From the NCBI GenBank assembly GCA_038087875.1, contig CM075988.1, positions 682,001-746,000 of the forward strand: 64,000 bases of DNA. Direction: 5' to 3'. Below, one piece after another: positions 2,601 through 64,000 of the stretch; the first letter of the stretch is position 1; every line of letters begins with the position of its first letter. The notes below the pieces were generated by a model. That model was not told the origin of the DNA and did no database searches. It was given only the letters and a program-made list of their open reading frames with translations. The DNA comes from Malacoraja senta (Eukaryota). Position numbers and translations under genes: made by a program.

Positions 2601-2624
2601 GATGCTTGGATGGGAACTGAGGAA

Positions 2625-3795
2625 GATGTGTACATGGACTTTAGTAAGGCGTTCGACACGGTGCTGCATGGTAGGCTGCTCTGGAAGTTTAGATCTCATG
2701 GGATCCAAGGAGAGATAGCTGAATGGATAGCAAATTGGCTCCTTGGAAGGAAGCAGAGGGTGATGGTGGAAGGTTGCTTCTCAGAATGGAGGCCTGTGAC
2801 TAGTGGTGTACCTCAGGGTTCGGTGCTGGGCCCGTTACTGTTTGTCATCTACATCAATAATTTGGATGAGAACATACAGGGCAAGATTAGCAAGTTTGCT
2901 GATGATGCAAAAGTTAGTGGTTTTGCAGATAGTGAAGATGGTTGTGAACGATTGCAGCAGGATCTGGATCGATTGGCCAGGTGGGCGGAGGAATTGTTGA
3001 TGGAATTTAATACAGAGAAGTGTGAGGTGTTGCATTTTGGGACATCAAACGAGGGCAGGACCTACACAGCAAATGGTAGTCCTCTGGGTAGTGTTGTAGA
3101 GCAGAGGGCTCTAGGAGTGCAGGTGCATGGTTCCTTGAAGGTCGAGTCACAGGTAGATAAGGTGGTCAAAAAGGCTTTTGGCACTTTGGCCTTCATCAGT
3201 CAGAGTATTGAGTATAAAAGTTGTGAGGTCATGTTACAGTTGTATAAGATGTTGGTGAGACCACAGTTAGAATATTGTGTTCAGTTCTGGGCACCATGTT
3301 ATAGGAAATATATTGTCAAGCTTGAAAGGGTTCAGAAAAGATTTACGAGAATCTTGCCAGGACTAGAGGGTGTGAGCTATAGGGAGAGGTGGGGTAGGCT
3401 GGGTCTCTATTACATGGAGCGCAAGAGGGTGAGTGGAGATCTTATAGAGGTACACAAAATCATGAGAGGAATAGATCGGATGGATGCACAGACTTTTACC
3501 CAGAGTAGGGGAATCAAGGAGCAGAGGACATAGGTTCAAGGTGAAGGAGAAAAGATTTAATAGGAATCCGAGGGGTAATTTTTTCACACAGAGGGTGGTG
3601 TGTGTATGGAACAAGCTGCCAGAGGTAGTTGAGGCTGGGACTATCCCATCGGTTAAGAAACATTTGGACAGGTACATAGATAGGACAGGTTTGGAGGGCT
3701 GTGGACAAAGCGCAGGCAAGTGGGGCAAGGGTAGCTGGGACATTGTGGACGAGTTGGGCTGAAGGGCCTGTTTCCACATTGTATCGCTCTCTATC
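2625..3795 (+). mobile_element. 5'-truncated CR1 LINE (ORF2 RT and C-terminus, 3' UTR)
   Basis: ORF 2610-3533 has [21 protein letters not shown]; a frameshift continues it into 3484-3762 (FFTQRVV.VWNKLP); CR1-type 3' UTR gggctgaagggcctgttt. Confidence 0.93.
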
Positions 3796-4791: not shown

Positions 4792-6550
4792 CTGACAAGA
4801 GAACAAAATGTCACAATTATTCATAACATATCAGAACGTGTCAAATTCTGTTACAGCAGTGGGCACAGTCACCACTTTTGGGCTTGGTGCACGAGGCTGA
4901 GGCTGAGGCAGGAGACATTCAGTGGAGCAGAGATCACTGGAGCAAGACATTGCTCTTCTTTACTCAGATTCCTTTGCTGTAAAGTCCAACACACAATCTG
5001 GTGTTCGAGTCACTTGTGGTACCTGCATTTTAACTTTCTTTTATATGTGTCACGACCACCTAGGTGTCAGTGAACACCTCTTACTGGTTAAAAAAAAGTC
5101 TTCTTTTCTATATTTTTCTGCTAAAATGTATGGCCTGACAATTTGCACCATTTGATGTGCTGTATTGTGCAGTCACTAATTGCCCAGTGCCCGAATCTTC
5201 TCTGCATCTTTCTTGCACCATGCATTGTGCATTGCACCATACATCAAACTGTGAGCAATCAGTAATCTTGGATATATTACAGATGGACTTGGTCACCGCA
5301 TCCGAATCATCAACATTGAATGTGAACATTGGGGATCCCATCGCACTGACTAATCACAGCTTCCCCACCAAACAATGATCATTTTGATCATCACTTTTTC
5401 CGTTCTAGTCCACCAGTTTATTCCTCCCAATCACATTTGTCTAACTATGCTTAATATTTCCTTATGTGAAACGGCACTGGAGATCTTGTGTCCATATAAG
5501 CCATATCCTCTTTGTGTTCTGCAGGTGTACCTCTCAGAAAGCTCCACCGATTTTGTTTTTGTTGTTCATTCAGGAGATTTGGGCTGAGCCTACATTTAAT
5601 TGCCTGTCCCTGTGAAGTGGCAGTGAGTTGCCTTCATGGACCACTGCAGTCCTTGAAGTGTGGCCAGATCCAAATGCTGTTTGGGAGCGAGTTCCAAGAT
5701 TTCGACTCAATGACGATGAAGAAACAGATTTTTAAATATGATTGTCCCTTTCATAAATCCATGTTGACCATATGCAATCCGATTATATTTTTGAAGTGCA
5801 CTGTTACCACCACCAGAATGATAGATTCCAGCATTTCCTAGCTACTGTTCGTGAGAAAACTGATCAGATTTCATCATGTTCACCTTTAATCCTTTACGGA
5901 ATAGTAGGATTATATTTGTTACATACCAATGTCTGGGAATTATTAGAAAAACTTCGGAAATAACATGCAGTATAGCTACTGTGCAAGAATGTTTGTGATT
6001 AGCAAATCAAGAGTTAAAACTTAGTACCTGCTTGTATTGTCTCTATTATGCTTCCCTGTATGTTTCCTAATTTCTTTGGAATATACTTATCTGCAGCTGC
6101 AGATTAGTCCCCTGTACATATATTAAAAACTGATCATCGGAAGAAAGTAGCATGGCAATGGTTATAAAGTTGTGGGTTTTTTTGGTACTTTTGTACTTTG
6201 TAGTAATTAAAGCATGACTTTAGTCACGTGGACCTGCTTGCTCTATGGTATATACAGTAAGATATCGGTGAAATACTTGCAGCAGAGTCTGGCTTAGTAG
6301 ATCACAGATTGTCCGTGATCACATTAATAAAACCTCGCAACCTCGAAGTCTAGTTCCGGCAGTGTTTCTTTAAGTAACTTCCCTGACAACCAGGTAACCC
6401 ACTTTTTTTTAAACCTGTGAGGCAAATTATCAGGCACTGAGGATTTATCTGCTGTTAGTCTCAATGATTTGTAAAATGCATTTTGTTTTCACAACTAATA
6501 TTTAGTAGGTTGGTAGATGGCACCAAGGTTGCTGGAGCTGCGGATAGTGA

Positions 6551-7189
6551 AGGCCCTGTCCCACTTACGCGTCCTTGGCACGCAAATTACGCGCCCTCAT
6601 GGTCGCGTTGAGTCGCACGGGTATCGTGTGGCCGCGCGGGGCCCGTCCCACTGAGAAGCGCGGAGTGGTATGTAGTTGTGCGCGAGATCGTGCGGCGCTC
6701 CGAAATTTTGTAGCGAACTAAATCTTTGCGCGCCACCGGCCTGTCGCGGAACCGACGGCCAAAGTGGGACAGGCCCAAGACCCTGGCGAGATGAAACGTC
6801 TCACCTCCAACAGCAGCAGAAGCAGGCAAACGATCGCCTGGGACTCAAGGCCGTTGCGGTCCGGATCTGCCTCTACTTCTACTCCCAGAGCAGGGCCAAG
6901 AAAATTTAAGATAGACACAAAATGCTGGAGTAACTCAGCGGGACCGGCAGCATCTCTGGAGAGAAGGAATGGATGACGTTTCGGGTCAAGACCCTTCTTT
7001 CAGACTGAAGAAGGGTCTCAACCCGAAACATCACCCATTGCTTCTCTCCAGAGATGCTGCCAGTCCCGCTGAGTTACTCCAGCATTTTGTGTCCATCTTC
7101 AAATGATGTCACATGCTCCAGATGGCTGTGCGGGTGCATGAAATCGCGCGCGACCATCGCGCCTCAACGCGACCAGTGGGACAGGGGCT
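6551..7189 (+). mobile_element. PIF/Harbinger-type MITE copy 1, carrying a palindromic PLE/HHR cassette
   Basis: TIRs AGGCCCTGTCCCACT / AGTGGGACAGGGGCT; 3-bp TSD TGA (6548-6550, 7190-7192); interrupts a degraded CR1; non-coding. Confidence 0.85.
6908..7099. repeat. Head-to-head palindromic dimer of the PLE 3' terminal/HHR module
   Basis: Arms of about 95 bp (aagatagacacaaaatgctggagtaactcagc... and ...gctgagttactccagcattttgtgtccatctt) meet at cagactg. Each strand carries a CTGA(A)AGA-stem-GAAA core. Confidence 0.88.
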
Positions 7190-7459
7190 TGAGGCTGTCA
7201 GAAGATAAAACAGGATATAGATCAGCTGCAGAAATGGGCAGTGAAGTGGCAGATGGAGTTTAATCTGAGCAAGTGTGACTTGCTACACTTTGAGAGAATG
7301 AATGTAAGAGGAAAGTATACAATTAATGGCCAGACCCTTAACAGCATTGATGTATAGAAGGATCATGGGGTCCATGTCCATAACTCCCTGAAAGTGGTAG
7401 ATAATGTTGAGTGAAGGCATATGGTATGCTTGCCTTCATTGGTGGAGCATTGAGTGTAA

Positions 7460-8143
7460 AGGGCCTGTCCCACTTACGTGTCCTTGATACGCAAATTACG
7501 TTGAGCCGAGATGGTCGAGCGATGGTCGGGCGCGATTACATGCGTACGCACAGCCGTCTGGAGCGCGTGACGTCATTTGAAGATGGACACAAAGCTGGAG
7601 TAACTCAGCGGGACTGGCAGCATCTCTGGAGAGAAGCAATGGGTGACGTTTCGTGTCGAGACTCTTCTTCAGTCTGAAAAGAAGGGCCTTGACCCGAAAC
7701 GTCACCCATTGCTTCTCTCCAGAGATGCTGCCGGTCCCGCTGAGTTACTCCAGCATTTTGTGTCTATCTTCAATTTTCTTGGCCCCTGGGAGTAGAAGTG
7801 GGGGCAGACCCGGACCGCAACGGCCGTGAGCCCCAGGCCGAGTTCGGCGATCGTTTGCCTGCTCCTGCTGCTGTTGCAGGTGAGACGTTGCGTCGTGCCA
7901 GGTTCTTGGGCCTGTCCCACTTTGGTCGTCAGTTCCGCGACAGGCCGTTGGCGCACAAAGATTTAGTTCACTGCAAGAATTTCGGAGCCCCGCGAGATGT
8001 CGGGACCAGCCCCGCACAACTCCATACCCCTCCGCGCTTCTAAGTGGGACCAGCCCCGCGCGGCCATATGGTGCCCGTACGCCTCAAGCGACCAAGAGGT
8101 CGCGTAATTTGCGAGCCAAGGATGCGTAAGTGGGACAGGCCCT
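7460..8143 (-). mobile_element. PIF/Harbinger-type MITE copy 2 (same family, inverted)
   Basis: TIRs AGGGCCTGTCCCACTTACG / CGTAAGTGGGACAGGCCCT; TSD TAA (7457-7459, 8144-8146); internal sequence is the reverse complement of copy 1. Confidence 0.88.
7580..7770. repeat. Head-to-head palindromic dimer of the PLE/HHR module (in MITE copy 2)
   Basis: Same palindrome as 6908-7099, in the opposite orientation. Confidence 0.88.
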
Positions 8144-9429
8144 TAAGTGTCAGTAAGTCATGATGCAGCTTTAAAGGACTTTGGTTAGTCTGCACTTGGA
8201 GTACTGAGTGCAGTTGTGATCGCCGCATTACAGGAAGGATTAGAGGTTTTGGAAAGGCTGCAGAAGAGGTTTTCCAGGATAATGCCTGGATTAGAAGTAT
8301 AATGTATTATGTATAATGAGAGGTTAGACAGACTCAAATAGTTTTCTCTACAATGTTGGTGGTTGAGAGAAGAACTGATATAAAATTGTGACAGCATAGA
8401 CAGTCAGATTCCTTACCCAGGTGGGAATATCAAAGACTAAAGAGCATAGCATAAGGTGATAGGGGCAAAGTGTAAAGGAGATGCACGGGGCATGTTTATT
8501 TACATAGAGGACAGTAGGTGCCTGGAATGCGCTGCCAGCGTTCCATGGATTCTACCTGAGCCGCGAAATTCCTGCAGCACTGCAGTTTGCTTTGCTCATG
8601 CTTTTGTACATTACAATACATTCAACCCGCAGCCCTCTATTTTTCATAAAAGTCTCAGTATATACAACCTCTCCCTATAACTCAAGCCCACAAGTCCAGG
8701 TAACATCTTTTGCACATTTTTTAACTTAATGTCACCCTTGTTATAAATGAGCTTGTAGAGGTTTCTAAATCTAGAAGTCTAAGGTGAGAACAGAGAGATG
8801 CAAGACGAACCTTAGGGACACCATTTTCACTCAGAGGGAACAAGCTATAGAAGTGGACACAATTATGACTGCCAAAGGACATTTGTGCAGATGTATGGAC
8901 TGGAAGCATTAAGAGGTACATGGAGAAAATGCAGGCAAACGCAACTAGTCCAGAATGTCCCTTGGTCGTTGTGCCAAAGGACTGTTTCCCTGCTCTGTAG
9001 CTCTGTTGCTCTACGACCCCTTTTTGAACCAGGCAAACGAGAAAACAAGTTTTAAGTTGCAGAGAGGATGTGGGAGGGATAGAAAGGACAGAAATGTGAG
9101 GCCAGGATTGCTAAGCTGATGAATTGTGGATGAAGCCATCTGGTTGAGGTGTTAATGAGGGTAGTGAGAGGAGTTAGGGGAGAGAAAATAAATAACGGCA
9201 CGTGCAGAAGCTGTGTATGTAGATACAAGCTGTCGGAAGTGTCCAGGTCAGGCTGCGTTAGTGGGAGAACAGCTCCAAATCTCACAACTGGATGGCTGGT
9301 CTGAGACAAATGACCAATTTTGATAGTCAGGAAGTTTCCCTCATGCCCAGATAGAGTCATAGAGCCATAGAACTACACAGCATGGAAACAGGCCCTTTGG
9401 CCCAACTCGTCTATGCCGACCTATGTCAA

Positions 9430-9707
9430 CCGGCGACAGGTTGTCTTCAGTTATATTCAGTTGTCGCCGACAGGGTCGTTGCTTGTCGTAGCTTGTCGCG
9501 TAGGTGGACGTAGGTTGACTTTGGTTATTGCCTGTGTGGTTGGAGGTTGTCGTAGGTGTGGTCATAGGTGGACGTCCTAGTTGGTCGCCGGTTGTCGGTA
9601 GCTTGTTGTAGACATTGTCGTGGGAGGGGATCCAATCGCCGCTTTTTCAGCGACCCGCTACGACTGTGACAGTCGCCGAAAAAAATCGCCTAGGTGGGAC
9701 AGGCCCT
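9430..9707. mobile_element. Partial Harbinger-type MITE (one terminus)
   Basis: Ends GGTGGGACAGGCCCT|TTA, the same TIR family as the other MITEs; gtcg/gtagg-rich interior; left end lost. Confidence 0.65.
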
Positions 9708-9969
9708 TTAGGGAATTGAGTATGAGTGTTGGGACTCAGCTGTTCAGGCACTATCTAGGGATAGAATGGACAGATGATGTTTCAGTCAGGAGCCTTGTTC
9801 AGACTGATGTAGGAAGGAGAAATATGGAAAAAAAGAGCTGAGGGCAGCACAAAGCCTGGTAAGATAGAGGTGAAGGAAACAAAAGGGTGTCAGATCAGGA
9901 GGGTAGAAATTAGACGTAATGCCCGAGGGAGCGATGTGGAAGGAAGGGGACAGGTGAAGGGGAAACATG

Positions 9970-11510
9970 TAGCAATGTTACAAAAGTTTGAGATTTTAAA
10001 AATCAAGTCTGCAATTTATCCCATCAGATAAAGTATAAAAAGAAGTTTAATTTGACAACTAATTCACTTTCATATCTTCAGTATTAAAGAAGTTGTGGCC
10101 ATTTTCATACTCGGAAATTAGCATCTTGTTCCCTATTGCTTTTCCATTGACTTAACACAAAAGCTGTGATCGAGGACAGTCAAAAGCCCATAACTTTCTT
10201 AAAAATTAAGAGAACTGAATGACATTTTCAGTAATTATAGATTGAAGCATTCTGAAACAAATATAAAACATCTTACTTGGATGACCTGAAATTAAAGCAT
10301 ATAATTAGTTAATTACCCAATTGTAGTTAATTACAAAATTGACCGTTGTGACGGAAATAGTAATAAAAGACTGCCTTGAAAATTAAAAACATGTGATATT
10401 CTCAAGATCAGAACTTTAATATTATTGTATTATATACTGTAAATCCATAACAGATAGGTAAATAAATTACAATTTCTAGCAATAGACCAAGTCTTTATGG
10501 AGAAGATCAGTTGCTAGCTGGTACATTGGCATATCATAATCAGTAGCATCACCATACTCCTCAGATTGTAACCAATAAGCAACTCTGTACACCTTGTTTT
10601 TCCTCAACATCAATTTTGGCATTGTAAACTACAAGTTTGTGCTCTTCAAACCACACAAGACATGCCTTTCTGCCAATTACTTTCCCATTAAGAATGTCCT
10701 GTAGATTCCATTTCTTAAAAAAATGATATATTTTTTTAATAGCCTAAGTATCCAAATAACAAATTAATCCCATTCACACAAGAATTCACAATATAACATG
10801 ATTTTTAAATCTCACTGACATTAATTTATATGCCAGATGGAAGGAATTTAATGTTTAATTCCCATAAATTAATCTAGAACCATCCACAATATAATTAAAA
10901 TTATTATTTTTTTGCACAAAACTGATATTTAGTATAAAAATATTGATTATGGGTAAACAATAACACAAAATATAGATGATTTAGATGCTCTTATGACATG
11001 ATTGTCCAAAAAAAAGAGCATTAAAATCATCTTGCGAGTGGGTTTTTCTGGAACGTGATCGATTGGAATGTTGCATTTGCGGTGAATTTGAACCCCATAT
11101 TGGCAGGAAAAGCACTGCCGGTTCGTATGGGGCCCAAATCACATTTTCGCAAAGGAAAATTAGATTAAAGCCATCCCGAGAAATAAGTTTATATGTAAAA
11201 TAAACGAGTTACATTACGTTTTGTCCCCTTCATGCGATCTGTCCTGTTGTAGGCATTGAGGGCGTTAGAAGTCACTTTTTATTTTAATGTAATTATTAAA
11301 TTGTCTCGCGATTAAATAAATTAAAAAATCGGGAACGAAAGTCCGATCGATTGTTCTTCAGGAGCTTAGCTGCCCAAAGAAAGCCGACTCCGATAAGCAG
11401 GAGAAAACGGCATTTTAATCTCCCCCCCCCCCCTCAAAGGCTCCAAAGTCGAGCACACGGCCAGTGGCAGAACTGCAGAGCCGCTGAAGGTAAGTTTTGT
11501 AACATCGCTA
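9970..11510. mobile_element. Non-autonomous TIR DNA transposon, hAT-like
   Basis: TIRs TAGCAATGTTACAAAAGTT / AAGTTTTGTAACATCGCTA (17/19 identical); flanks aaacatg / aaacatag (8-bp TSD with a 1-nt deletion); AT-rich non-coding interior. Confidence 0.78.
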
Positions 11511-13060: not shown

Positions 13061-16000
13061 TAGAAACATAGAAACATAGAAAATAGGTGCAGGAGTAGGC
13101 CATTCGGCTCTTCGAGCCTGCAACGCCATTCAATATGATCATGGCTGATCATTTAAGTGACTTTGAGTCCTGAAAAGCGCTATATAAATAAAATCTATTA
13201 TTATTATTATTATCCAACTCGGTATCCTGTACCTGCCTTCTCTCCATACCCCCTGATCCCTTTAGCCACAAGGGCCACATCTAACTCCCTCTTAAATATA
13301 GCCAATGAACTGGCCTCAACTACCTTCTGTGCCAGAGAATTCCACAGATTCACCACTGTCTGTGTAAAAAATGATTTACTCATCTCGGTCCTAAAAGACT
13401 TCCCCGTTATCGTTAAACTGTTACCCCTTGTTCTGGACTTCCCCAACATCGGGAACAATCTTCCTGCATCTAGCCTGTCCAACCCCTTAAGAATGTTGTA
13501 AGTTTCTATAAGATCCCCCCTCAATCTTCTAAATTCTAGCGAGTACAATCCAATCTTTCTTCATATGAAAGTCCTGCCATCCCAGGAATCAGTCTGGTGA
13601 ACCTTCTCTGTACTTCCTCTATGGCAAGAATGTCTTTCCTCAGATTAGGAGACCAAAACTATGCAATACTCCAGGTGTGGTCTCACCAAGACCCTGTACA
13701 ACAGCAGTAGAACCTCCCTGCTCTTATACTCAAATCCTTTTGCTATGAATGCTAACATACCATTCTCTTTCTTCACTGCCTGCTGCACCTGCATGCCTAC
13801 TTTCAATGACTGGTGTACCATGACACCCAGGTCTCGTTGCATCTCCCCTTTTCCTAATCGGCCACCATTCAGATAATAGTCTACTTTCCTGGTTTTGCCA
13901 CCAAAGTGGATAACCTCACATTTATCCACATTATACTGCATCTGCCATGCATTTGCCCACTCACCCAACCTATCCAAGTCACCTTGCAGCCTCCTAGCAT
14001 CCTCCTCACAGCTAACACTGCCCCCTAGCTTTGTGTCATCCGCAAACTTGGAGATGTTGCATTCAATTCCCTCATCCAGATCATTAATATATATTGTAAA
14101 TAACTGGGGTCCCAGCACTGAGCCTTGCGGTACCCCACTAGTCACTGCCTGCCATTCTGAAAAGGACCCGTTTACTCCTACTCTTTGCTTCCTGTCTGCC
14201 AGCCAGTTCTCTATCCACATCAATACTGAACCTCCAATACCGTGTGCTTTAAGTTTGCATACTAATCTCTTATGTGGGACCTTGTCGAAAGCCTTCTGAA
14301 AGTTCAGGTATAACACATCATCTGGTTCTCCCTTATCCGCTCTACCAGTTACATCCTCGAAAAATTCTATAAGATTCGTCAGACATGATTTACCTTTCAT
14401 AAATCCATGCTGAATTTGTCCAATCAATTCACCACTTTCCAAATGTGCTGCTATCCCATCTTTAATAACTGACTCTAGCATTTTCCCCACTACCGATGTT
14501 AGACTAACTGGTCTGTAATTCCACGTTTTCTCTCTCCCTCCCTTTTTAAAAAGTGGGGTTACATTAGGTACCCTCCAATCCTCAGGAACTACTCCAGAAT
14601 CTAAAGAGTTTTGAAAAATTATCACTAATGCATCCACTATTTCTGGGGCTACTTCCTTAAGTACTCTGGGATGCAACTTAGCTGGCCCTGGGGATTTATC
14701 GGCCTTTAATCCATTCAATTTACCTAACACCACTTCCCGGCTAACCTGGATTTCATTCAGTTCCTCCATCTCATTTGACCCCCGGTCCCCTGCTATTTCC
14801 GGCAGATTAATTAAGTCTTCCTTAGTGAAGACAGAACCAAAGTAGTTATTCAATTGGTCTGCCATGTCCTTGTTCCCCATGATCAATTCACCTGTTTCTG
14901 ACTGCAAGGGACCTACATTTGTTTTAACTAATCTTTTTCTCTTCACATATCCATAAAAACTTTTGCAGTTAGTTTTTATGTTCCCTGCCAGTTTTCTTTC
15001 ATAATCTATTTTCCCTTTCCTAATTAAGCCCTTTGTCCTCCACTGCTGGACTCTGAATTCCTCCCAATCCCCTGGTAGGCTGCTTTTTCTGGCTAATTTG
15101 TATGCTTCATCTTTTGTTTTGATACTATCCCTGATTTCCCTTGTTATCCACGGATGCACTACCTTCCCTGATTTATTCTTTTGCCAAACTGGGATGAACA
15201 ATTGTTGTAGTTCATCACTGCAGTCTTTAAATGCCTTCCATTGCATATCCACCGTCAGCCCTTTAAGGATCAATTGCCAGTCTATCTTGGCCAATTCACG
15301 TCTCATACCCCAAAAGTTACCTTTCTTTAAGTTCAGGACCCTTGTTTCTGAATTAACAATGTCACTCTCCATCCTAATGAAGAACTCAACCATATTATGG
15401 TCACTCTTTCCCAAGGGGCCATGCACAACAAGACTGCTAACTAACCCTTCCTCATTACTCAATACCCAGTCTAGAATAGCCTGCTCTCTCGTTGGTTCCT
15501 CTACATGTTGGTTTAGAAAACTGTCCAGCATACATTCCAAGAAATCCTCTTCCTCAGCACCCCTGCCAATTTGATTCACCCAATCTATATGTAGATTGAA
15601 GTCACCCATTATAACTGTTTTACCTTTGTTGCACGCATTTCTAATTTCCTTTGATGCCATCCCCAACTCCACTACTACTGTTAGGTGGCCTGTACACAAC
15701 TCCCACTAACGTTTTCTGTCCCTTAGTGTTTCGCAGCTCTACCCATATCGATTCCACATCCTCCAAGCTAATGTCCTTCCTTTCTATTGCGTTAATCTCC
15801 TCTCTAACCAGCAATGCTACCCCACCTCCTTTTCCTTTCTGTCTATCCCTCCTGAATATTGAATATCCCTGGATGTTCAGCTCCCAGCCTTGGTCACCCT
15901 GGAGCCATGTCTCCGTGATCCCAACTATATCATATTCATTAATAACTATCTGCATATTCAACTCATCCACCTTATTACAAATGCTCCTTGCATTGAGACA

Positions 16001-16170
16001 CATAGCCTTCAGGCTTGTTTTTACAACACTCTTACCCCTTATACAATTATGTTGAAAAGTGGTCCTTTTTGATTTTTGCCCTGGATTTGTCTGACTGCCA
16101 CTTTTACTTTTCACCTTGCTACCTATTGCTTCTACCCTCATTTTACATCCCTCTGTCTCTCTGCTCTTGT
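13061..16170 (-). mobile_element. CR1 LINE, nearly complete ORF2 (APE endonuclease and RT), frameshifted
   Basis: ORFs 15641-16192 (CLNARSI, ITETW), 13645-15699 (GDFN, SDH, RT with FADD) and 13210-13548; (CATAGAAA)n tail at 13061-13082. Confidence 0.95.
13153..13213 (+). mobile_element. L2-clade LINE 3' tail inserted in the CR1 3' UTR
   Basis: gtgactttgagtcctgaaaagcgctatataaataaaatc(tat)n interrupts the CR1 sequence gatcat|ccaactc. Confidence 0.7.
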
Positions 16171-16725
16171 ACTTTTCTTTTTCCTCTTTCAATTGATTTC
16201 AAGACGCTGAAAAGCCTGAAGCAGGTGAATCACCTCAAGAGGGAGTTCCCGAAGTGAAGCAGATGAGCCGGCCCCAAAGGGACTGCTTTGATCCATGACG
16301 AGTGATGGTCAACAAACAGCAACTGTCGAAAATTGTAGGTGGTGAATTGGACATTGACTGGGGTGATCTACCTCCAGCCCCAAGCACCTTGCTAGAATTA
16401 ACATACTGTTCATGCAAGAAAACAAGCTGTGAGAAGTCAAGTGCAGGGAAAAGAAGATGCTCATGTCAACAGCATGGTGTGCCATGTGCTGATTTATGTA
16501 AGTGTGTTGGATGCAGAAACTCTATTACTGCAAAAGACTTGGAATCTGCTGAAGAATATTCAGATGAAGATTTGATGTAATTTATACAAATAAATTGGGG
16601 AAATAAATGATTAGATAAAGTTTTATTTTAATGTCGAGCGTTTCACTGTTTATTTGGTCAAATTATTTAAACAATGAGTGAATTACTTATGATAATGGCG
16701 TGCTGGTGAATGACAGTGCGACAGT

Positions 16726-17215: not shown

Positions 17216-17387
17216 CTACAGGTACTTAATGCAACACTTTTGGGGTTCTTTTAGGTTAATGGTAATAGCCCTCATTTGCATTGGCAGCATGGGGGGGGGG
17301 GGTCTCTAACATAAATATAGGCTCATTGTAACTTAAAATGAATACTCATCGAGTAAACATCAGAGAATTCGATTCTTGGCCTTTCTT

Positions 17388-19509
17388 GCGAGAGGATTTA
17401 AAAGGAGTGAATTGGGACATTTTGTTTTATGGGAAGGATGTCGAAGAGAAATGGAGGACATTTAAAGGTGAAATTTTAAGAGTACAGAATCTTTATGTCC
17501 CTGTTCGGTTGAAAGGAAAGAGTAATAATTGGAAAGAGCCATGGTTTTCAAGGGAAATTGGACACGGTTCAGAAAAAGAGAGAGATTACAATAATTATAG
17601 GCAGCATGGAGTAAATGAGATGCTTGAGGAGTATAAAGAATGTAAAAAGAATCTTGAGAAAGAAATTAGAAAAGCTAAAAGAAGATGTGAGGTTGCTTTG
17701 GCAAGTAAGGTGAAAGTAAATCCAAAGGGTTTCTACAGCTATATTAATAGCAAAAGGATAATGAGGGATAAAATTGGTCCATTAGAGAGTCAGAGTGAAC
17801 AGCTATCCACAGAGCCAAAAGAGATAGGGGAAATATTGAACTATTTCTTTTCTTCGGTATTCACCAAGGAGAAGGATATGGAATAATGTGAGGTAAGGGA
17901 AACAAGTAGAGTAGCTATGGAAACTATGAGGATCAAAGAAGAGGAAGTACTGACACTTTTGAAAAATATAAAAGTGGATAAGTCTCCAGGTCCTGACAGG
18001 ATATTCCCTAGGACATTGAGGGAAGTTAGTGTAGTGTAGAATGGTGCCAGAGGATTGTCGTACTGTGCATGTTGTTCCATTGTTTAAAAAGGGTTCTAAG
18101 AGTAAACCTAGCAATTATAGACCTGTTAGTTTGACGTCAGTGGTGGGCAAATTAATGGAAAGGATACTTGGAGATAATATATATAAGCATCTGGATAAAC
18201 AGGGTCTGATTAGGAACAGTCAATATGGATTTGTGCCTGGAAGGTCATGTTTGACTAATCTTCTTGAATTTTTTGAAGAGGTTACTAGGGAAATTGATGA
18301 GGGTAAAGCGGTGGATGTTGTCTATATGGACTTCAGTAAGGCCTTTGACAAGGTTCCACATGGAAGGTTGGTTAAGAAGGTTCAATTGTTGGGTATTAAT
18401 AGTGGAGTAGCAAGAAGGTTTCAACAGTGGCTGAATGGGAGATACCAGAGAGTAATGGTGGATAATTGTTTGTCAGGTTGGAGGCCGGTGACTAGTGGGG
18501 TGCCTCAGGGATCTGTGTTGGGTCCACTGTTGTTTGTCATATACATCAATGATCTGGATGATGGTGTGGTAAATTGGATTAGTAAGTATGCAGATGATAC
18601 TCAGATAGGTGGTGTTGTGGATAATGAAGTCGATTTTCAAAGTCTACAGAGAGATTTAGGCCATTTGGAAGAGTGGGCTGAAAGATGGCAGATGGAGTTT
18701 AATGCTGATAAGTGTGAGGTGCTACATCTTGGCAGGACAAATCAAAATAGGACGTACATGGTAAATGGTAGCGAATTGAGGAATGCAGCTGAACAGAGGG
18801 ATCTAGGAATAACTGTGCATAGTTCCCTGAAGGTGGAATCTCATGTAGATAGGGTGGTAAAGAAAGCTTTTGGTGTGCTGGCCTTTATAAATCGGAGCAT
18901 TGAGTATAGAAGTTGGGATGTAATGTTAAAATTGTACAAGGCATTGGTGAGGCCAATTCAGGAGTATGGTGTACAATTTTGGTCGCCCAATTATAGGAAA
19001 GTTGTCAACAAAATAGAGAGAGTACAGAGGAGATTTAGTAGAATGTTGCCTGTGTTTCAGCACCTAAGTTACAGAGAAAGCTTGAACAAGTTAGGTCTTT
19101 ATTCTTTGGAGCGCAGATGGTTAAGGGGGGACTTGATAGAGGTCTTTAAAATGATGAGAGGGATAGACAGAGTTGACGTGGATAAGCTTTTTCCATTGAG
19201 AGTAGGGAAGATTCAAACAAGAGGACATGACTTGAGAATTAAGGGACAGAAGTTTAGGGGTAACATGAGGGGGAACTTTTTTACTCAGAGAGTGGTAGCT
19301 GTGTGGAATGAGCTTCCAGTGGAAGTGGTGGAGGCAGGTTCGATTTTATCATTTAAAAATAAATTGGATAGGTATATGGACGGGAAAGGAATGGAGGGTT
19401 ATGGTCTGAGTGCAGGTAGATGGGACTAGGGGAGAGTAAGTGTTTGGCATGGACTAGAAGGGCCGAGATGGCCTGTTTCCGTGCTGTAATTGTTATATGG
19501 TTATATGGT
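17388..19509 (+). mobile_element. 5'-truncated CR1 LINE, (TTATATGG)n-tailed family
   Basis: ORFs 17338-17886 and 18041-19429 (RT with YADD); near-identical to the copies at 40590-42062 and 60293-64000; tail gtaattgttatatggttatatggt. Confidence 0.95.
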
Positions 19510-21700: not shown

Positions 21701-23179
21701 GTACACAAAAATGCTGGAGAAACTCAGCGGGTGCAGCAGCATCTATGGAGCGAAGGAAATAGGTAACGTTTCGGGCCGAAACCCTTCTTCAGACTGATAG
21801 GGGGTGGGGAGAAGAAAGGAAAAAAGGAAAAAGGCAGAGGAGGAGCCTGAGGGCTGGGGGAGGGGAGGAGACAACCAGATGGCTGATGAAGGGGAGGGGA
21901 CAGCAAGGGCTAGCAGAATTGGGAGAATTCAATGTTCAGGCCACCAGGATGTAGACTGCCCAAGCGGAATATGAGGTGCATTTCCTCCAATTTACGGTGT
22001 TGCTCGCTGTGGCCATGGAGGAGACCCAGGACAGAGAGATCAGATACAGAATGGGAGGGGGAGTTGAAGTGCTGAGCCACTGGGAGTTCAGGTTGGTTAT
22101 TGCGGACCGACCGGAGGTGTTCGGCGAAACGATCGCCAAGCCTCCGCTTGGTCTCACCGATGTAGATCAGCTGGCATCTAGAGCAGCGAATGCAATAGAT
22201 GAGGTTGGAGGAGATGCAGGTGAACCTCTGTCGCACCTGGAACGACTGCTTGGGTCCTTGAATGGAGTGGAGGGGGGAGGTGAAGGGACAAGTGTTGCAT
22301 CTCTTGCGGTTGCAAGGGAAAGTACCAGGGGATGGGGTGGTATCGGAGGGAAGAGAAGAATTGACAAGGGAGTTACGGAGGGAGCGGTCTTTGCGGAAGG
22401 CAGACATGGGGGGAGATGGGAAGATGTGGCGAGTGGTGGGGTCACGTTGGAGGTGGCGAAACTGACGGAGGATCACTTGTTGTATGTAACGGCTGGTGGG
22501 GTGAAAGGTGAGGACTAGGGGGACTCTGCCTTTGTTGTGAGTGGGGGGATGGGGAGAGAGAGCAGTGTTGCGGGGTATCGCAGAGACCCTGGTGCGAGCC
22601 TCATCTATGGTGGAGGAGGGGAACCCCCGTCCCCTGAAGAATGAGGACATTTCAGATGCCCTGGTGTGGAACGCCTCATCCTGGGAGCAGATGCGGCGTA
22701 GACGGAGGAATTGGGAGTGGGGGATGGAGTCCTTACAGGAAGCAGGGTGGGAAGAAGTGTAGTCCAGATAGCCATGGGAGTCGGTAGGTTTGTAGTGGAT
22801 GTCGGTAAGGAGTCTATCACCTGCGATGGAGATAGTGAGGTCAAGGAATGGTAGGGAAGTGTCGGAAATGGTCCAGGTGTATTTGAGTGCCGGATGGAAG
22901 TTGGTGGTGAAACGGATGAAGTCAGTCAGTTGTGTGTGGGTGCAGGATGTGGCACCAAAACAATCATCGATGTAGCGGAGATAGAGGTCGGGGATGGGGC
23001 CCTGGTACGCATTGAACAAGGATTGTTCTACGTACCCGACAAAGAGGCAGGCGTAGCTGGGGCCCATGCGTGTGCCCATAGCTACGCCTTGTATTTGGAG
23101 GAAATGGGAGGAGTCAAATGAAAAGTTATTAAGTGTAAGTACCAGCTCCGCTAGGCGGAGGAGGGTGTCAGTGGCCGGG
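21701..23179 (-). mobile_element. Young 5'-truncated Penelope-like element (RT C-half and GIY-YIG)
   Basis: Uninterrupted ORF with QIQGVAMGTRMGP, YLRYIDD, the CxxC linker and NLIYCIRCSRC..IYIGET; 14-bp TSD aattgaattcctag (21687-21700, 23180-23193). Confidence 0.95.
21761..21796 (-). ncRNA. Minimal type-I hammerhead ribozyme motif in the PLE 3' terminal repeat
   Basis: cagt CTGAAGA a GGGTT-TC-GGCCC GAAA CGTT acct: conserved core, stem II, palindromic ACGU stem III. PLEs are known to carry such motifs. Confidence 0.75.
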
Positions 23180-23330
23180 AATTGAATTCCTAGTACTGTC
23201 ATTGTGCATCAAAATTGAGGACGGGATTTGTGGGATAATGCGAAATAGGAATGACAACTAAAGTTAAATCTCCGGATCAGAGGATTGCTGAACATATGTC
23301 TCAGGCATCGAGAAACATTATCATACGTAC

Positions 23331-25479: not shown

Positions 25480-26884
25480 GAGAAACCACACTGTAACAAT
25501 GTAATTTTAGACCTGTTGCACTAACATCAGTTGCCATGAAGGCCTTTGAGCACATAGTCCTCACCCATCTGAAAACATACACTGTCCCCATCATGGACCC
25601 TTTTCAATTTGCATACAGCGCCAACCGGTCTGTGGAGGATGCTATCAACTTAGCTCTTCACTAGTCCCTACATCATTTGGAATCACCGAACACTTATGCA
25701 CGCATCCTGTTTATAGATTTTAGCTCGGCCTTTAATACTATAGACCAATTAAACTCTACAATAAACTGTTGGACATTGGCATTCACCTAGCCATGTGCCA
25801 TTGGATTTTACATTTTCTGACAAACAGACAACAAAGAGTCAAGGTGGGTGAAAAACTCTCCAGCCCTCTGACTATCAATACAGGAGCCCCTCAAGGGTGC
25901 GTTCTGTCACCTCAGCTCTTCTCACTTTACACCAACAACCTCACATCCCAATGCAGCTCAGTTAAAATTTTCAAATATGCAGATGACACAACAATAATTG
26001 GCCTCATCTCAGACAACAACGAATCACAATACCATCAAACAGTGGACAGCGCAGTCAAATGGTGCGCAGAAAACAACCTCCAGCTTAACACCTCAAAAAC
26101 CTTAGAAATCATCATAGATTTCAGACGCAAACAAAACCTCAAACTCCCGGTCCATGTCAACTCCCATCCCATAACCTCCACGAACTTATTTAGGTTTCTG
26201 GGCACCTATATCTGCAATAATCTAAAATGTCACATCAATGCAGACCACATCATCAAGAAAGGACAACAACGCCTATACTTCCTCAGACAGCTCAAAAAGT
26301 TCAGAGTCCACAAACACCTCCTGGTCCGTTTCTATCAATCCATCATTGAAAGCATCATCACCTCCTCAATCACAGTCTGGTATGGAAACACTGACAGTCA
26401 CTCACTACATAGAATACAGCTCATTGTCTCCAAGGCCTCTAGGATCATCAATTCTCCCCTCCCCTCAATCCATTCCATTTACCTCCAACGTACCTCAAAA
26501 CGGGCAACAAAGATCATCTCGGACCCCTCCCATCCAGCAAACCACCTTTTCCAGTCTCTCCCTTCAGGGAGGTGCCTTAGGTCACTTGCTACAAAATCCA
26601 CCCATTTTAAAAACAGTTTCTTCCCCTCAGCAATAAGAACACTTAATTCCCTCCAATAACTTTTTGACTTTGATGTATACAGTGTCTTGTCTATGGTTTT
26701 TGTCTGTTCTTTTGCACTATGTTTGTTGGTGAGATTTGTGATTTGTGATGTGGTATGGATGCACTTTATTATTATGATTTGTGTTGTTATTAGTGTTAAT
26801 GTGACTAAAACAGTGTACCATCATGTACTGAACCCAAATACCACCAACCCTGGTCGTGTGGCAAATAAAGATTCTATCTATCTA
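25480..26884 (+). mobile_element. 5'-truncated Rex1/Babar-clade LINE
   Basis: RPVALTS, DPFQFAY, IDFSSAFN, GAPQGCVLSP, YADD, QQRLYFLRQLKKF, PSHPANHLF, KNSFFPSAIR; 3' end aataaagattc(tatc)n. Confidence 0.88.
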
Positions 26885-30938: not shown

Positions 30939-31848
30939 CTACAGGGAAAACCACATGAACCACGTCAATAGATTCATTCATAGAAATGTCAATGTTAGAT
31001 AGAGCACAAGAAAGCTTCAATTCAGCACCAGCACAGGCAACCAAGCCAAAATATGATTGAATCACAATGGTCAGCCAATATGGATAAGACCTGATCAACT
31101 CCAATTTTAGCCAAACGTGTTCAATGTAATCTCAAACTGCTGGAGTAATTCAAGCGGGGTCAGGCAGTATCTGTGGTGGTACTGAATAGGTGGTGTTTCA
31201 GGTCGATACCCTGCTTCAGACTGGACAAGGATCCCAATCCAAACCATTCCTGTCGTTTCCTTCCACAGATGCTGCCTGACCTGCTGAGTTGATCTTTGTG
31301 CTTTAATCAAAATTCCAGCATCTGCAGTTCCTTGTGTCTTGAATGTAGTTTCTCTGCTGTTATATCCTGTCCTGGAACCTTTTGAATTGTACACCCATTA
31401 TGTTCTGTTGTTTTCAAAGGTTTATGCATAAATAACCAAGGCCCCCATATCTCTGCACGTCCTATAGAGCTGCCATTGCCAACATTCTCCCATTCTTTAA
31501 CCAACAGTATAATTTCCCACATTTCAATTACATTTCTCGTCCGGTTGTCTGCCTAATGTCCAAGCAATGCATAATCCCCCTCCATCGTTTGATGTCAGCT
31601 GCAAATGTGGTGTTATCCTGTGTGTTGGTGTAGAGCCAGCACTCAACAATGGGTACACCTCTCCCTTGTCTCTGTCCCTGAGCCAGTGTATTATCCAGAT
31701 GGCCACTGACCCCACTGCGTGGGGCTCACTTTGCTGAACACCTCTTTGTGTGGGAGTTTTTTGAGGAGCTGACAGAGGTAATCGATGAGAGTGGGGCATG
31801 TATTTTAGTAAAGCATTCAACAAGGTGGATCTGATTCAAAACAATTAA

Positions 31849-32729
<881 letters not shown>

Positions 32730-56105: not shown

Positions 56106-57042
56106 GTTAAAGAAGGAACTGCAGATGCTGGAAAATCGAAGGTACACAAAAGTGCTGGAGAAACTCAGCGGGTGCAGCAGCATCTATGGAGCGATGGAAA
56201 TAGGTAACGTTTCGGGCCAAAACCCTTCTTCAGACTGATAGGGGGTGGGGAGAAGAAAGGAAAAAAGGAAAAAAGGAAAAAGGCGGAGGAGGAGCCCGAG
56301 GGCTGGGGGAGGGGAGGAGACAACCAGATGGCTGATGAAGGGGAGGGGACAGCAAGGGCTAGCAGAATTGGGAGAATTCAATGTTCAAACCCGCAGGATG
56401 TAGACTGCCCAAGTTCAGGTTGGTTATTGCGGACCGACCGGAGGTGTTCGGCGAAACGATCGCCAAGCCTCCGCTTGGTCTCACCGATGTAGATCAGCTG
56501 GCGACAGAGGTGCGACAGAGGTTCACCTGCGTCTCCTCCAACCTCATCTATTGCATCCGCTGCTCTAGATGCCAGCTGATCTACATCGGTGAGACCAATC
56601 GATCGTTTCGCCGAACACCTCCGGTCGGTCCGCAATAACCAACCTGAACTCCCGGTGGCTCAGCACTTCAACTCCCCCTCCCATTCCGTATCTGACCTCT
56701 CTGTCCTGGGTCTCCTCCATGGCCACAGCGAGCAACACCGTAAATTGGAGGAAATGCACCTCATATTCCGCTTGGGCAGTCTACATCCTGCGGGTTTGAA
56801 CATTGAATTCTCCCAATTCTGCTAGCCCTTGCTGTCCCCTCCCCTTCATCAGCCATCTGGTTGTCTCCTCCCCTCCCCAGCCCTCGGGCTCCTCCTCCGC
56901 CTTTTTCCTTTTTTCCTTTTTTCCTTTCTTCTCCCCACCCCCTATCAGTCTGAAGAAGGGTTTCGGCCCGAAACGTTACCTATTTCCTTCGCTCCATAGA
57001 TGCTGCTGCACCTGCTGAGTTTCTCCAGCATTTTTGTGTACC
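56106..57042. mobile_element. Fold-back Penelope insertion (two 3' ends in inverted orientation)
   Basis: Minus-strand PLE 3' end (about 56109-56502) fused to a plus-strand PLE 3' end (about 56501-57042); 15-bp TSD ttgcgggggaacagt (56091-56105, 57043-57057); HHR motifs at 56202-56237 (-) and 56946-56981 (+). Confidence 0.92.
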
Positions 57043-59503
57043 TTGCGGGGGAACAGTTTGTGTTTGTGATATAGCTCATCTACCAAATTCACAATTCTGT
57101 TAATTTTCTTTTTAAATGTTTTTTTTAAAGTTATTTTTAAATGGCTCATGTCTTGTGGTTGAATTGATTTTTGTATTAAACTTGCACTCTGTAAGTCATC
57201 TAATCCCACTGTTCACAACTGCGTGAGTGGGTGCAGGATTTTCTGGAGCTCCTTTCTAATGGCAGTATTTTGTATGCTCAAAGTAAAATAAGGAAGACTA
57301 GACACGAATATCAAAATGATCACCTGCAGCTGAAAAAAAATGATGATTTGTGTGGTATTTGGTAAAATAATAGCAATATGAAGATTCCAGTTGCTCTACT
57401 TTTGGAGTGTTCCTTAATGTTTTTTTGTGTCTATGGAATTGTTTTGCAACAATAAAATGGGTTTGGTCTTCCCAATAGGCAGAGAGTGGAATGAGATCTG
57501 TCTGTAATAGTGGGGTTATCTAAATGAAGTATTTAACAAACTAAACTAACATTTGTTTTGAGCAAGATTAACAATTGATGTATAACTTAAGGCTGATTTT
57601 ATTCAGCGACCATACAACATTAGATTGTGTAGGAAAGAACTTTGATTTAAATCAAAGGTAGACACAAAATGCTGGAGTAGGACTGCTAATATATATATTT
57701 GTGACACATATGTACATAAATATATAACACACACATATATATTTCTCCAGTTTCTTGTGCTCTCCTCTAATTATTTGTTGAGCAACCTTTTTCTTTCTTT
57801 CGTTTCATTCATTCAACCTCTCTCTCTCTCTCTCTCTCTACCTCTATGAAATCCTAATATTGTGAATAAAATATCAATGAACACAAAGGCTGGAGGGACA
57901 GGATCAAGAGTTTGGTTCAGTCCAGGGGTCGGCAACCTTTTTTAAATAGGGGCCAGGACCCTCCGGGACTAGCTGCAGTTCCCAGGTCGCCTGCGAGCCC
58001 CTGGTCTAGCTGCAGTTCCGCTGTCCGGTACCGGCGGCCGTTCGCAGCCACCTGAGCTACTGAGTGAGTTGCTGGCATGATCCCCCGACCCCCTCATTCT
58101 CTCCCTGCAACTTTACCCCTGGCGGCCCAGCTGTGCTGATCCGGGCCAGACTCCCCACACGCTGTGGAAGAAACATAGGCACCTTTTTGCGTTTTATTAG
58201 GATTTATGGATCCTTTTAAATGTGAATATCTCATAATGACACATTTATGGGTTAGCAGTATTTTGCACCAATATTGCACCAACCCACTCAATTTTAAATA
58301 ATACAAAATCAAAATTCATAAACAAGGATAACACTTTTTATTTCTGTCATTCATGGCAGTTATTTGAAAAGGACTCCGTAGTTCGGTGTAGGAGATCTTG
58401 TTGACGAATATTCCGGACCCACTGTCAACATCTGAAAATACAAAAAATATCATATAGGATTAACATAACAAATTTGATTATAACTACATACCTGCAGAAT
58501 GGATGACATATCACTTAAATGCAATTGTGGTGGGGTGGGGAGAGACATGTTTAGTGAAGATGCATTTTTCCTCTAATATGTCAATTTATATTAAATGTAG
58601 CTTATTAAAATCTTCTTACACTAGCATGCATGCCTTACAACAAGAACAAAACTAAAAATGTACAGCATGTGCATAAATCCTTGTAGGAGGTGGGGCAGGT
58701 TGACACAGCAATTAATAAAACAATGGGATGTTAGACTTATTAACAGAGATTAATATAAAATTTTAAAAAATAATGTCTTATATAATATAATACATTGTTG
58801 GGATCATAAGAATAGAATTGTATATGGTTATATGTTATATGTATATGGTTACATCATCATACATTGGGAAGGAAGTTACTGCTTTAATGTGTGCTGCTCA
58901 TGGCATGTCGTTGTTCCCTTAGATATGGGAGCTGCACAAGTGCAACAGGGTCTATATGTTCAGCTGAATTTGTGTGAGATCACAGAGACGCAGAAAGAAA
59001 TTATGTGACAACCTTTGTCCTTCCACAACAAAACCCTCGTAAGAAAATGCTCTTGATGAGAAGATTTACGAGGATGTTGCCACGAGGACTCGACTATCAT
59101 AACCAAAGCGGAGCACTCCGCTCTATGATCTTTGATCTGAGCTATAGTGAGAGATCGGCAGGCTAAATAATATTTTCACTAGACGACAGAAATTTTTTCT
59201 CAACTTTCGTTTTTAATGGGGAACCTGAAGAAAGACTGGTCGGGTCGCCTACATTGGCGAATCAAGCAATTTATCGCTTGTAGATGTGGATGCCGTCATG
59301 ACGGAAGCCGGTTACGGGAATGGCACTGAAGATTACCCATCACCTACCACGACTTTTTCGCAGGGTGATTTTTGCCAAGGACTGTGAATGTTATCATGTA
59401 TGATAAAAAAGGAGGGAATGAAAGAGCTAATAGTCAAATCTAATATAGTTTACAAAATTACCTGGAACACAATATGGAGGACAGGTTGTCTTTTTAATAA
59501 AAA

Positions 59504-63200: not shown

Positions 63201-64000
63201 AGATGGGGGAGATATTGAACAATTTCTTTTCTTCGGTATTCAACAAGGAGAAGGATATGGAATTATGTGAGGTAAGGGAAACAAGCAGAGTAGCAATGGA
63301 AACTATGAGATTCAAAGAAGAGGAGGTGCGGACACTTTTGAAAAATATGAAAACGGATAAGTCTCCAGGTCCTGACAGGATATTCCCTAGGACATTGAGG
63401 GAAGTTAGTGTAGAAATAGCAGGGGCTATGACAGAAATATTTCAAATGTCATTAGAAACGGGAATAGTGCCGGAGGATTGGCGTACTGCGCTTGTTGTTC
63501 CGTTGTTTAAAAAGGGTTCTAAGAGTAAACCTAGCAATTATAGACCTGTTAGTTTGACGTCAGTGGTGGGCAAATTAATGGAAAGGATACTTAAAGCCTG
63601 GAAGGTCATGTTTGACTAATCTTCTTGAATTTTTCGAAGAGGTTAATAGGGAAATTGATGAGGGTAAGATTCAACTGTTGGGTATTAATGGTGGAGTAGC
63701 AAGATGGATTCAACAGTGGCTGAATGGGAGATGCCAGAGAGTAATGGTGGATGGCTGTTTGTCAGGTTGGAGGCCGGTGACTAGTGGGGTGCCTCAGGGG
63801 TCTGTGTTGGGTCCACTGTTGTTTGTCATGTACATCAATGAACTGGATGATGGTGTGGAAAATTGGATTAGTAAGTATGCAGATGATACTAAGATAGGTG
63901 ATGTTGTGGATAATGAAGTAGATTTTCAAAGTCTACAGAGAGATTTAGGCCATTTGGAAGAGTGGGCTGAAAGATGGCAGATGGAGTTTAATGCTGATAA
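60293..64000 (+). mobile_element. Near full-length CR1 (5' UTR, zinc-finger/leucine-zipper/SGNH-esterase ORF1, ORF2), running off the window
   Basis: ORF1 ATG at 60410: CSGCQMW..C.RC, coiled coil, IVIGDS, VVHIGTND, DGLHLN. ORF2 has APE motifs (ISETW, GDFN, SDH) and RT, with frameshifts and deletions. Tandem gaagcagctgattgg motifs in the 5' UTR. Confidence 0.95.
60873..61448 (+). mobile_element. Solo LTR (576 bp) inserted in CR1 ORF1
   Basis: TGTTA...TAACA termini; 5-bp TSD GGGGG (60868-60872, 61449-61453); removing it restores V-R-G-S-D in ORF1; ATTAAA near 61374. Orientation is tentative. Confidence 0.9.

Follow-up and report, generated by a model that had tools for sequence, protein, structure and literature searches.

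Minimal hammerhead ribozymes have been described in the pLTRs of Penelope-like elements (PLEs), where pairs on opposite strands have also been reported (Cervera and De la Pena 2014, PMC4209133). In the experiments described there, a single minimal hammerhead did not cleave and a same-sense partner was needed, while dimers cleaved little. An A6a-type insertion, a natural insertion located after A6, is described as having low activity (PMC3088659), and inverted 5'-truncated copies are a known form of Penelope insertion (PMC8557442). For Harbinger transposons, a staggered-cut model of excision has been put forward (PMC4561436), and the arms of inverted repeats are described as being homogenized by template switching (PMC8604942). 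Finally, DNA transposons can themselves be the target of LINEs, as Tx1L inserts in Tx1D in Xenopus and Tx1-9_AMi inserts in crocodilian Harbinger transposons (Kojima 2015, PMC4494074).

The locus analyzed here lies in a stretch of 64,000 nucleotides (G000:C12:682001-746000), hereafter the window, and is mostly an ordinary nesting of mobile elements, in which both the composite and its Tx1 parasite belong to known kinds. We hold with good confidence that it contains copies of a non-autonomous PIF/Harbinger MITE present in more than 1,000 copies, whose founder likely took an inverted Penelope insertion that is now a passenger with damaged, likely inactive, hammerhead motifs. No report of a Harbinger MITE and Penelope hammerhead composite was found among the titles and the beginnings of the abstracts of the papers that literature searches on these elements returned, and Repbase or Dfam may already hold the families.

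The two copies in the window and their family

Copy 1 (6551–7189, plus strand) is a member of subfamily B1, whose minus-arm core has a single extra A. Its TIRs are 16 bp long, and about 45 bp are missing from its right subterminal region. It is flanked on both sides by the TSD TGA (6548–6550 on the left, 7190–7192 on the right) and contains an internal TIR-like subterminal repeat (6761–6776, plus strand), a block that doubles as the right end of the element in subfamily A. Copy 2 (7460–8143, minus strand) is inverted relative to copy 1, belongs to subfamily B2, with two extra A, and has TAA on both sides (7457–7459 and 8144–8146). Within 6551–8143 there is no ORF of at least 130 aa. Both copies sit within one decayed LINE, which we take to be of CR1 type. 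Its middle piece (7193–7456, plus strand) continues at about 6500–6550 and 8147–8330, and an RT-like reading runs across both insertion sites. Other LINE copies of this type, whose long open frames reach 686 aa, are found in the window at 2601–3533, 13645–16198, 17332–19429 and 60414–63619, and another RT fragment is located at 25736–26659.

The two copies are only 270 bp apart, inverted and inside the same host LINE, as a local inverted duplication would leave them. We give that explanation next to no probability, because the TSDs differ, the identity between the copies is only 86.7%, their sub-lineages are not the same and, for each of them, copies on other contigs are more closely related: the nearest other copies of copy 1 are 91% identical to it, and the left arm of copy 2 is up to 95% identical to copies elsewhere. 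Local duplication was rejected on these grounds. The sequence-only reading had recognized two copies of one PIF/Harbinger-type MITE with separate TGA and TAA TSDs, which proved correct; it had also named a local duplication of just two copies as the alternative to fear, and what was found is a dispersed family.

When copy 1 was used as query against the genome (1.94 Gb), all 40 scored candidates were near full length and lay on many contigs. Exact matches numbered 1,433 for a 20-mer at the left junction and 1,121 for a 20-mer in the right flank, outside the palindrome, and the reversed controls gave none. Of the right-flank matches, the first 30 on C1 comprised 18 with the right end of subfamily B, to which the window copies belong, and 12 with that of subfamily A. 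Since 13 of those 18 B copies were also in the list of left-junction matches, the B copies can be estimated at about 2,000 and the whole family at roughly 3,000, some of these copies lying in segmental duplicates. The composite is not limited to this assembly, as its left junction is bridged in X19 and its right junction in X22, both contigs of other organisms. On the unplaced contigs L067–L093, one right flank is common to most MITE copies, so that the MITE there belongs to a larger unit, duplicated or in tandem, that is spread over many small contigs; another flank is common to the copies in L034, L037, L038, L051, L052 and L055–L057.

The assignment to PIF/Harbinger rests on target sites, TIRs and a dispersed high copy number. 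Counting only copies whose flanks are distinct, 57 of 68 lie between TAA or TTA (TWA) on both sides, and the flanking triplets are identical in 46 of the 68. The first 14 bases of the TIR, as well as TWA sites, are common to the MITE and three transposase elements of 4.7–4.9 kb (L244–L246). In L244, the one scanned, an ORF matched Pfam DDE_Tnp_4 (E 8e-35) and another matched MADF at the cut-off (E 2e-4). Over these 14 bases the TIRs are thus shared with DDE_Tnp_4 and Myb/SANT elements, and a Harbinger transposase together with a Myb/SANT protein would mobilize the MITE in trans. When 30 of 150 transposase matches were compared with the MITE in search of a cognate autonomous partner, no similarity beyond the TIR was found. 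Taken together, the matches to the two flanks, the TWA sites and the derived cassette changes common to the copies support the earlier proposal that the composite was spread by DNA transposition.

The autonomous-type family (L244:3379-8124, L245:416-5124 and L246:3156-8026) has 40-bp TIRs and convergent transposase and MADF genes, and many of its copies keep open transposase frames of 440–480 aa. Two more elements in the window, at 31846–32729 and about 9420–9707, have the same TIR core and unrelated interiors; the former contains a long (GT)n run, and of the latter the right TIR only is present. Non-matching ends were observed in 14 of the 57 TWA-flanked copies (11 TAA/TTA and 3 TTA/TAA), far above the background of point mutation, and L246:3156-8026 was noted alongside them. 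These ends fit either carry-over of the donor TSD after a staggered cut or conversion between paired TIRs, and with a quarter of the TWA-flanked copies mismatched in this way, the staggered-cut model of Harbinger excision could be tested on genomic data.

The Penelope-derived palindrome and its hammerhead motifs

At the same internal position, both copies carry a head-to-head palindrome of the Penelope terminal module, located at 6905–7102 in copy 1 (centre at 7004) and at 7577–7773 in copy 2. The dimer and its position had been described correctly in the sequence-only reading; its length is 197–198 bp rather than 190 bp. The arms are 92% complementary, and the RNA fold of 6900–7107 has an energy of -160.9 kcal/mol (z = -21), a value equaled by none of 200 shuffles.

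The module is of Penelope origin. A 5'-truncated Penelope-like element in the same window (21703–23208, minus strand) contains an RT/GIY-YIG ORF (21910–23208), and about 110 bp behind it lies a sister module (21703–21800) that is 84% identical to the cassette arm. The GIY-YIG domain of this ORF scored just under the Pfam cut-off (E 4e-4). A module behind an RT and GIY-YIG ORF was also found in L133 and L148. The element at 21703–23208, which is presumably Neptune-like, comprises a 432-aa open RT/GIY-YIG stretch, a CxxC linker and the hammerhead module, and a related inverted module pair is present at 56131–57044. Genome-wide, the intact 30-base core has 14,022 exact copies; of the first 30, this MITE contained none, its mutated arms being missed by the pattern by design, and 5 were flagged as inverted pairs. 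By analogy with the inverted truncated copies already described, the head-to-head form is an ordinary form of Penelope insertion.

The cassette was found throughout the family. With the left arm alone as query, it followed directly in 26 of 29 other loci and behind a 6.4-kb LINE in the remaining 3, and in the unbiased sample of 30 right-flank matches from C1 it was whole or partly deleted in 28, the other 2 being truncated. The count of copies with and without the cassette that had been proposed therefore gave, the truncated copies aside, carriers throughout the samples and zero cassette-free copies. Two empty-site patterns, which a diverged or differently joined ancestor would escape, had 0 matches, and no cassette-free MITE was present in samples of 29, 30 and 30 loci, one of the latter being weak because most of its loci have one common flank. 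As no empty MITE was found, the capture is deduced from the Penelope origin of the cassette, and insertion into the MITE and capture of flanking DNA are both compatible with the data. Of the earlier idea of a single capture followed by transposition, what stands on direct comparison is one founder with the cassette and the spread of the composite.

A CTGA-n-GA...GAAAC motif is present on each strand of both palindromes, and it was recognized as a hammerhead by this pattern and by its place behind the GIY-YIG ORF. A search of 5000–10000 against Rfam, with E values up to 10, gave no hammerhead match and three weak unrelated ones. In copy 1, the plus-arm motif (7005–7032, plus strand) keeps the core CUGAAGA, has the first helix I pair broken and reads AUC instead of GUC, and the minus-arm motif (6975–7003, minus strand) has one A inserted in the core. 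The corresponding arm of copy 2 (7674–7703, plus strand) has two inserted A; in its other arm (7645–7672, minus strand), stem II contains an A-A mismatch and the first helix I pair is broken. The extra A residues in the core of the same arm in copies 1 and 2 (CTGAAAGA and CTGAAAAGA, respectively) had been noticed before; the damage of the second arm, where the base before CUGA is unable to pair in either copy, had been missed.

To see how far this damage extends, both arms were surveyed across the family. Both junctions were present in 132 of 150 loci, and 95 had independent flanks (82 B and 13 A), a sample that is dominated by the top hits to B queries and in which the junction rule places about three B-like copies among the 13 A. 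The plus arm could be parsed in 79 of the 95 copies. It keeps the CUGANGA core without insertion, and an intact minimal hammerhead was found in none of the 79: an A before CUGA, coming from the centre of the palindrome, breaks the first helix I pair in 78, and even with helix I ignored only one passes. The minus arm of subfamily B (73 of 82 parsed) was likewise intact in none, with one extra A in 44 copies and two in 29. The extra A is not universal, being absent from 8 of the 9 minus arms parsed among the 13 A copies; two of these nine are intact, and some subfamily A copies thus keep a native-like minus-arm motif. At four sites B departs from the free modules while A agrees with them. The likely order is thus a founder in which the plus arm was already crippled, followed by A, B1 and B2, the motifs likely having decayed during amplification.

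Folding adds to the damage. In folds of the whole element the pairing probability of stem II is 0.0, and forcing it costs 22–31 kcal/mol vs 4.6 kcal/mol for a free module. Each strand has one sense motif, which is buried in the hairpin and transcribed after its own antisense, and the same-sense partner for a dimer is absent from that strand; a dimer might still be formed in trans. Of the features of active hammerheads, the minus arms of B lack an insertion-free core, and the plus arms lack the combination of stem II, GAAAC-GUC with the palindromic ACGU, and helix I. By analogy with the A6a-type insertion, one inserted A may lower ribozyme activity, perhaps without abolishing it. Overall, the MITE motifs are damaged and, judging from sequence and folding models, likely to be inactive. 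The suggestion that the cassette spreads a working bidirectional ribozyme was thus not upheld. Catalytically dead cores, the outcome that had been named as arguing against it, are what the plus arms and the B minus arms point to at the sequence level, and the accompanying warning about partly mutated cores and a competing hairpin was well placed.

Exchange between the arms and a LINE that targets the MITE

The two arms of the palindrome have not evolved independently. For three arm pairs, every one of the four joint states was observed (at one pair, AA in 29 copies, TA in 26, TT in 20 and AT in 18), and derived bases that are missing from free modules recur as complements on the opposite arm. 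Across 70 full-length B copies, the four-gamete test failed for 141 of 225 palindrome-body site pairs vs 74 of 300 body-body pairs, the pairs not being independent of each other. Non-CpG divergence was 207/11,980 (1.7%) in the palindrome vs 622/20,971 (3.0%) in the body, although constraint, or the decay of CpG sites in the body, could also account for the lower value. The exchange is likely to be due to recurrent conversion or template switching on DNA that has folded back, with a possible contribution of mosaic repair from other copies. In its thousands of copies, this one palindrome records conversion between the arms, the rate of which can be measured from them.

Next to the palindrome lies the target of a Tx1L-like LINE. 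It is empty in both window copies (6880–6900, plus strand, in copy 1; 7778–7794, minus strand, with a 4-bp deletion, in copy 2), and the 13-mer at 6888–6900 is duplicated on insertion elsewhere. The insert, of about 6.4 kb, consists of an ORF1 with a CCHC knuckle, an APE-RT ORF2 and a poly(A) tail, examples being L061:655-7098, L062 and L063:683-7003 (G000:C1:214979400-, C11:5802500- and C5:27268400-). Pfam matches in ORF2 were RVT_1, Exo_endo_phos and zf-RVT; ORF1 had no Pfam hit, and its CCHC was read from the sequence. A 1,117-aa open stretch of ORF2 is retained in L061. The best named full-length match is the Xenopus TX1 149-kDa protein (45% over 98% of the query), with fish Tx1 proteins at about 35%, and a protein of a ray matches at 71%. 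From these best matches, the LINE appears closest to Xenopus Tx1L and is placed in the Tx1 clade; the ray match and the types of repeats present also suggest that the genome is that of a cartilaginous fish.

The 3' end of this LINE has at least 172 exact matches; when the end pattern was varied slightly, 73 of its matches led straight into the target 12-mer. The MITE site accounts for 25 of the first 30 3' ends (23 recognized by pattern, and L196 and L213 by reading), a number that counts ends and not loci, some being tandem or duplicated. The insertions are independent, as indicated by three different 5' truncations, each with a 13-bp TSD, by a host-specific variant that in L062 was copied on both sides of the LINE, and by the distribution of 28 LINE-bearing hosts over A (2), B1 (14) and B2 (12). 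Tandem stacks of the LINE occupy the site in some copies. An unrelated poly(A)-tailed sequence of about 110 bp is located at the same target in L211 (about 1500–1750), with its own copy of the 13-mer; it is possibly a SINE or a transcript moved in trans by the Tx1L-like machinery.

The target lies 4–25 bp upstream of the palindrome. Because ACTCC(C/T)A precedes the cut, in the absence of a palindrome, at 4 of the 7 readable off-target junctions, the site is likely to be set by its sequence and not by the palindrome. The LINE is also younger than the MITE, given that its 3' ends are 97–98% alike vs 90% for the MITE. It represents another natural site-specific APE retrotransposon, and its on- and off-target sites outline the recognition motif.

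A probable history and its relation to known systems

The history that we favor starts with a Penelope piece that would have been inserted once, before the split of subfamilies A and B. A Harbinger transposase with its Myb/SANT partner would then have moved the composite in trans and, as this involves no RNA step, nothing would have kept the ribozyme intact. The plus arm would have been crippled already in the founder, and the minus arm would have gained one A, and later two, in lineage B. The palindrome presumably folds back at the DNA level often enough to copy mutations from arm to arm, and the younger Tx1L-like LINE would use the sequence beside it as a multicopy safe landing site.

The opposite view of the motifs, that the MITE delivers a working ribozyme into host transcripts in either orientation, draws on the CUGA-n-GA and GAAAC boxes still recognizable on both strands and on the two intact minus arms among the nine parsed in A. 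We regard it as very unlikely, because no intact motif is present in the 79 plus arms or in the 73 minus arms of B, stem II is buried, the single minimal hammerhead available per strand is of the kind described as unable to cleave without a same-sense partner (PMC4209133), and none of the 30 intact cores sampled from the 14,022 is in this MITE. Co-transcriptional folding before the antisense arm exists could help only a motif in the 5' arm, and the sense motif here always comes second. A role of the hairpin as RNA is compatible with the favored history and, although still unlikely, deserves separate mention: intronic read-through would yield a near-perfect 95-bp duplex and, from it, siRNA against Penelope modules or a substrate for A-to-I editing. 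The modelled fold is very stable in either orientation, the copies number in the thousands and target modules are abundant, but free inverted modules (5 of 30 flagged) would give the same duplex and make the MITE unnecessary.

The palindrome might also be useful as DNA, its cruciform or hairpin aiding transposition or gap repair, so that cassette copies out-amplified empty ones and the LINE gained as well. The lack of empty copies by two patterns and in the samples, the homogenized arms, the second cut of the LINE only 4 bp from the palindrome edge and the off-target copies, which in all seven cases where the 5' junction can be read are short 3' fragments, would agree with such a role. We nevertheless find it improbable: a founder effect accounts for fixation without selection, copies with partly deleted arms exist, off-target insertions occur at ACTCC(C/T)A without any palindrome, and truncated LINE copies are found on target too (L110, L193 and L201). 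To the boldest extension of this idea we accord just a small probability. It would have the ribozyme module turned into a DNA structure that folds back in Harbinger transposition, keeps itself symmetrical, gave an advantage that left no empty copies and helps to make the landing site of the Tx1L-like LINE, while its hairpins could also silence free Penelope elements; if true, it would describe a three-tier Harbinger-Penelope-Tx1 consortium. On the favored history, a class II element can multiply minimal-hammerhead motifs, but as debris, and motif counts in such genomes accordingly overstate ribozymes.

Compared with the PLEs whose pLTR carries a minimal hammerhead, the module found here has in common CUGA-n-GA, one extra base, stem II, GAAACGUC and the absence of stem III (Cervera and De la Pena 2014, PMC4209133). 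It also resembles the elements described in that paper in its placement behind a GIY-YIG ORF and in forming pairs on opposite strands. With the inverted 5'-truncated PLE insertions described by Craig et al. (2021, PMC8557442) it shares an inverted truncated copy joined at the 5' end. Unlike in those elements and insertions, the pair found here has become a fixed part of a class II element, together with which it was amplified, and both hammerhead motifs are damaged.

The host element is similar to PIF/Harbinger Tourist-like MITEs, such as mPing, in its short TIRs common with transposase and Myb/SANT elements, its 3-bp TAA/TTA site, its non-coding nature and its high copy number (PMC4561436). 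It differs from them in its length of about 690 bp, in the internal 198-bp palindrome derived from a retrotransposon and in its link to the mobilizing partner, which here consists of a 14-bp TIR match only. The exchange between its arms is like the homogenization described in PMC8604942, where bases are copied between non-identical arms and recur in parallel lineages; unlike that case, it concerns many copies of one transposon with a 95-bp arm and almost no spacer, and its mechanism is deduced from the pattern.

As for the LINE, Tx1L in Tx1D and Tx1-9_AMi are likewise Tx1-clade LINEs at one site in a non-autonomous DNA transposon (Kojima 2015, PMC4494074). Tx1-9_AMi is described as lying about 300 bp from the Harbinger 5' end (PMC4494074), vs about 350 bp here. 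What sets the present LINE apart is a new host lineage, an apparently new target sequence, a 13-bp TSD, tandem stacking and the Penelope palindrome adjoining its site.
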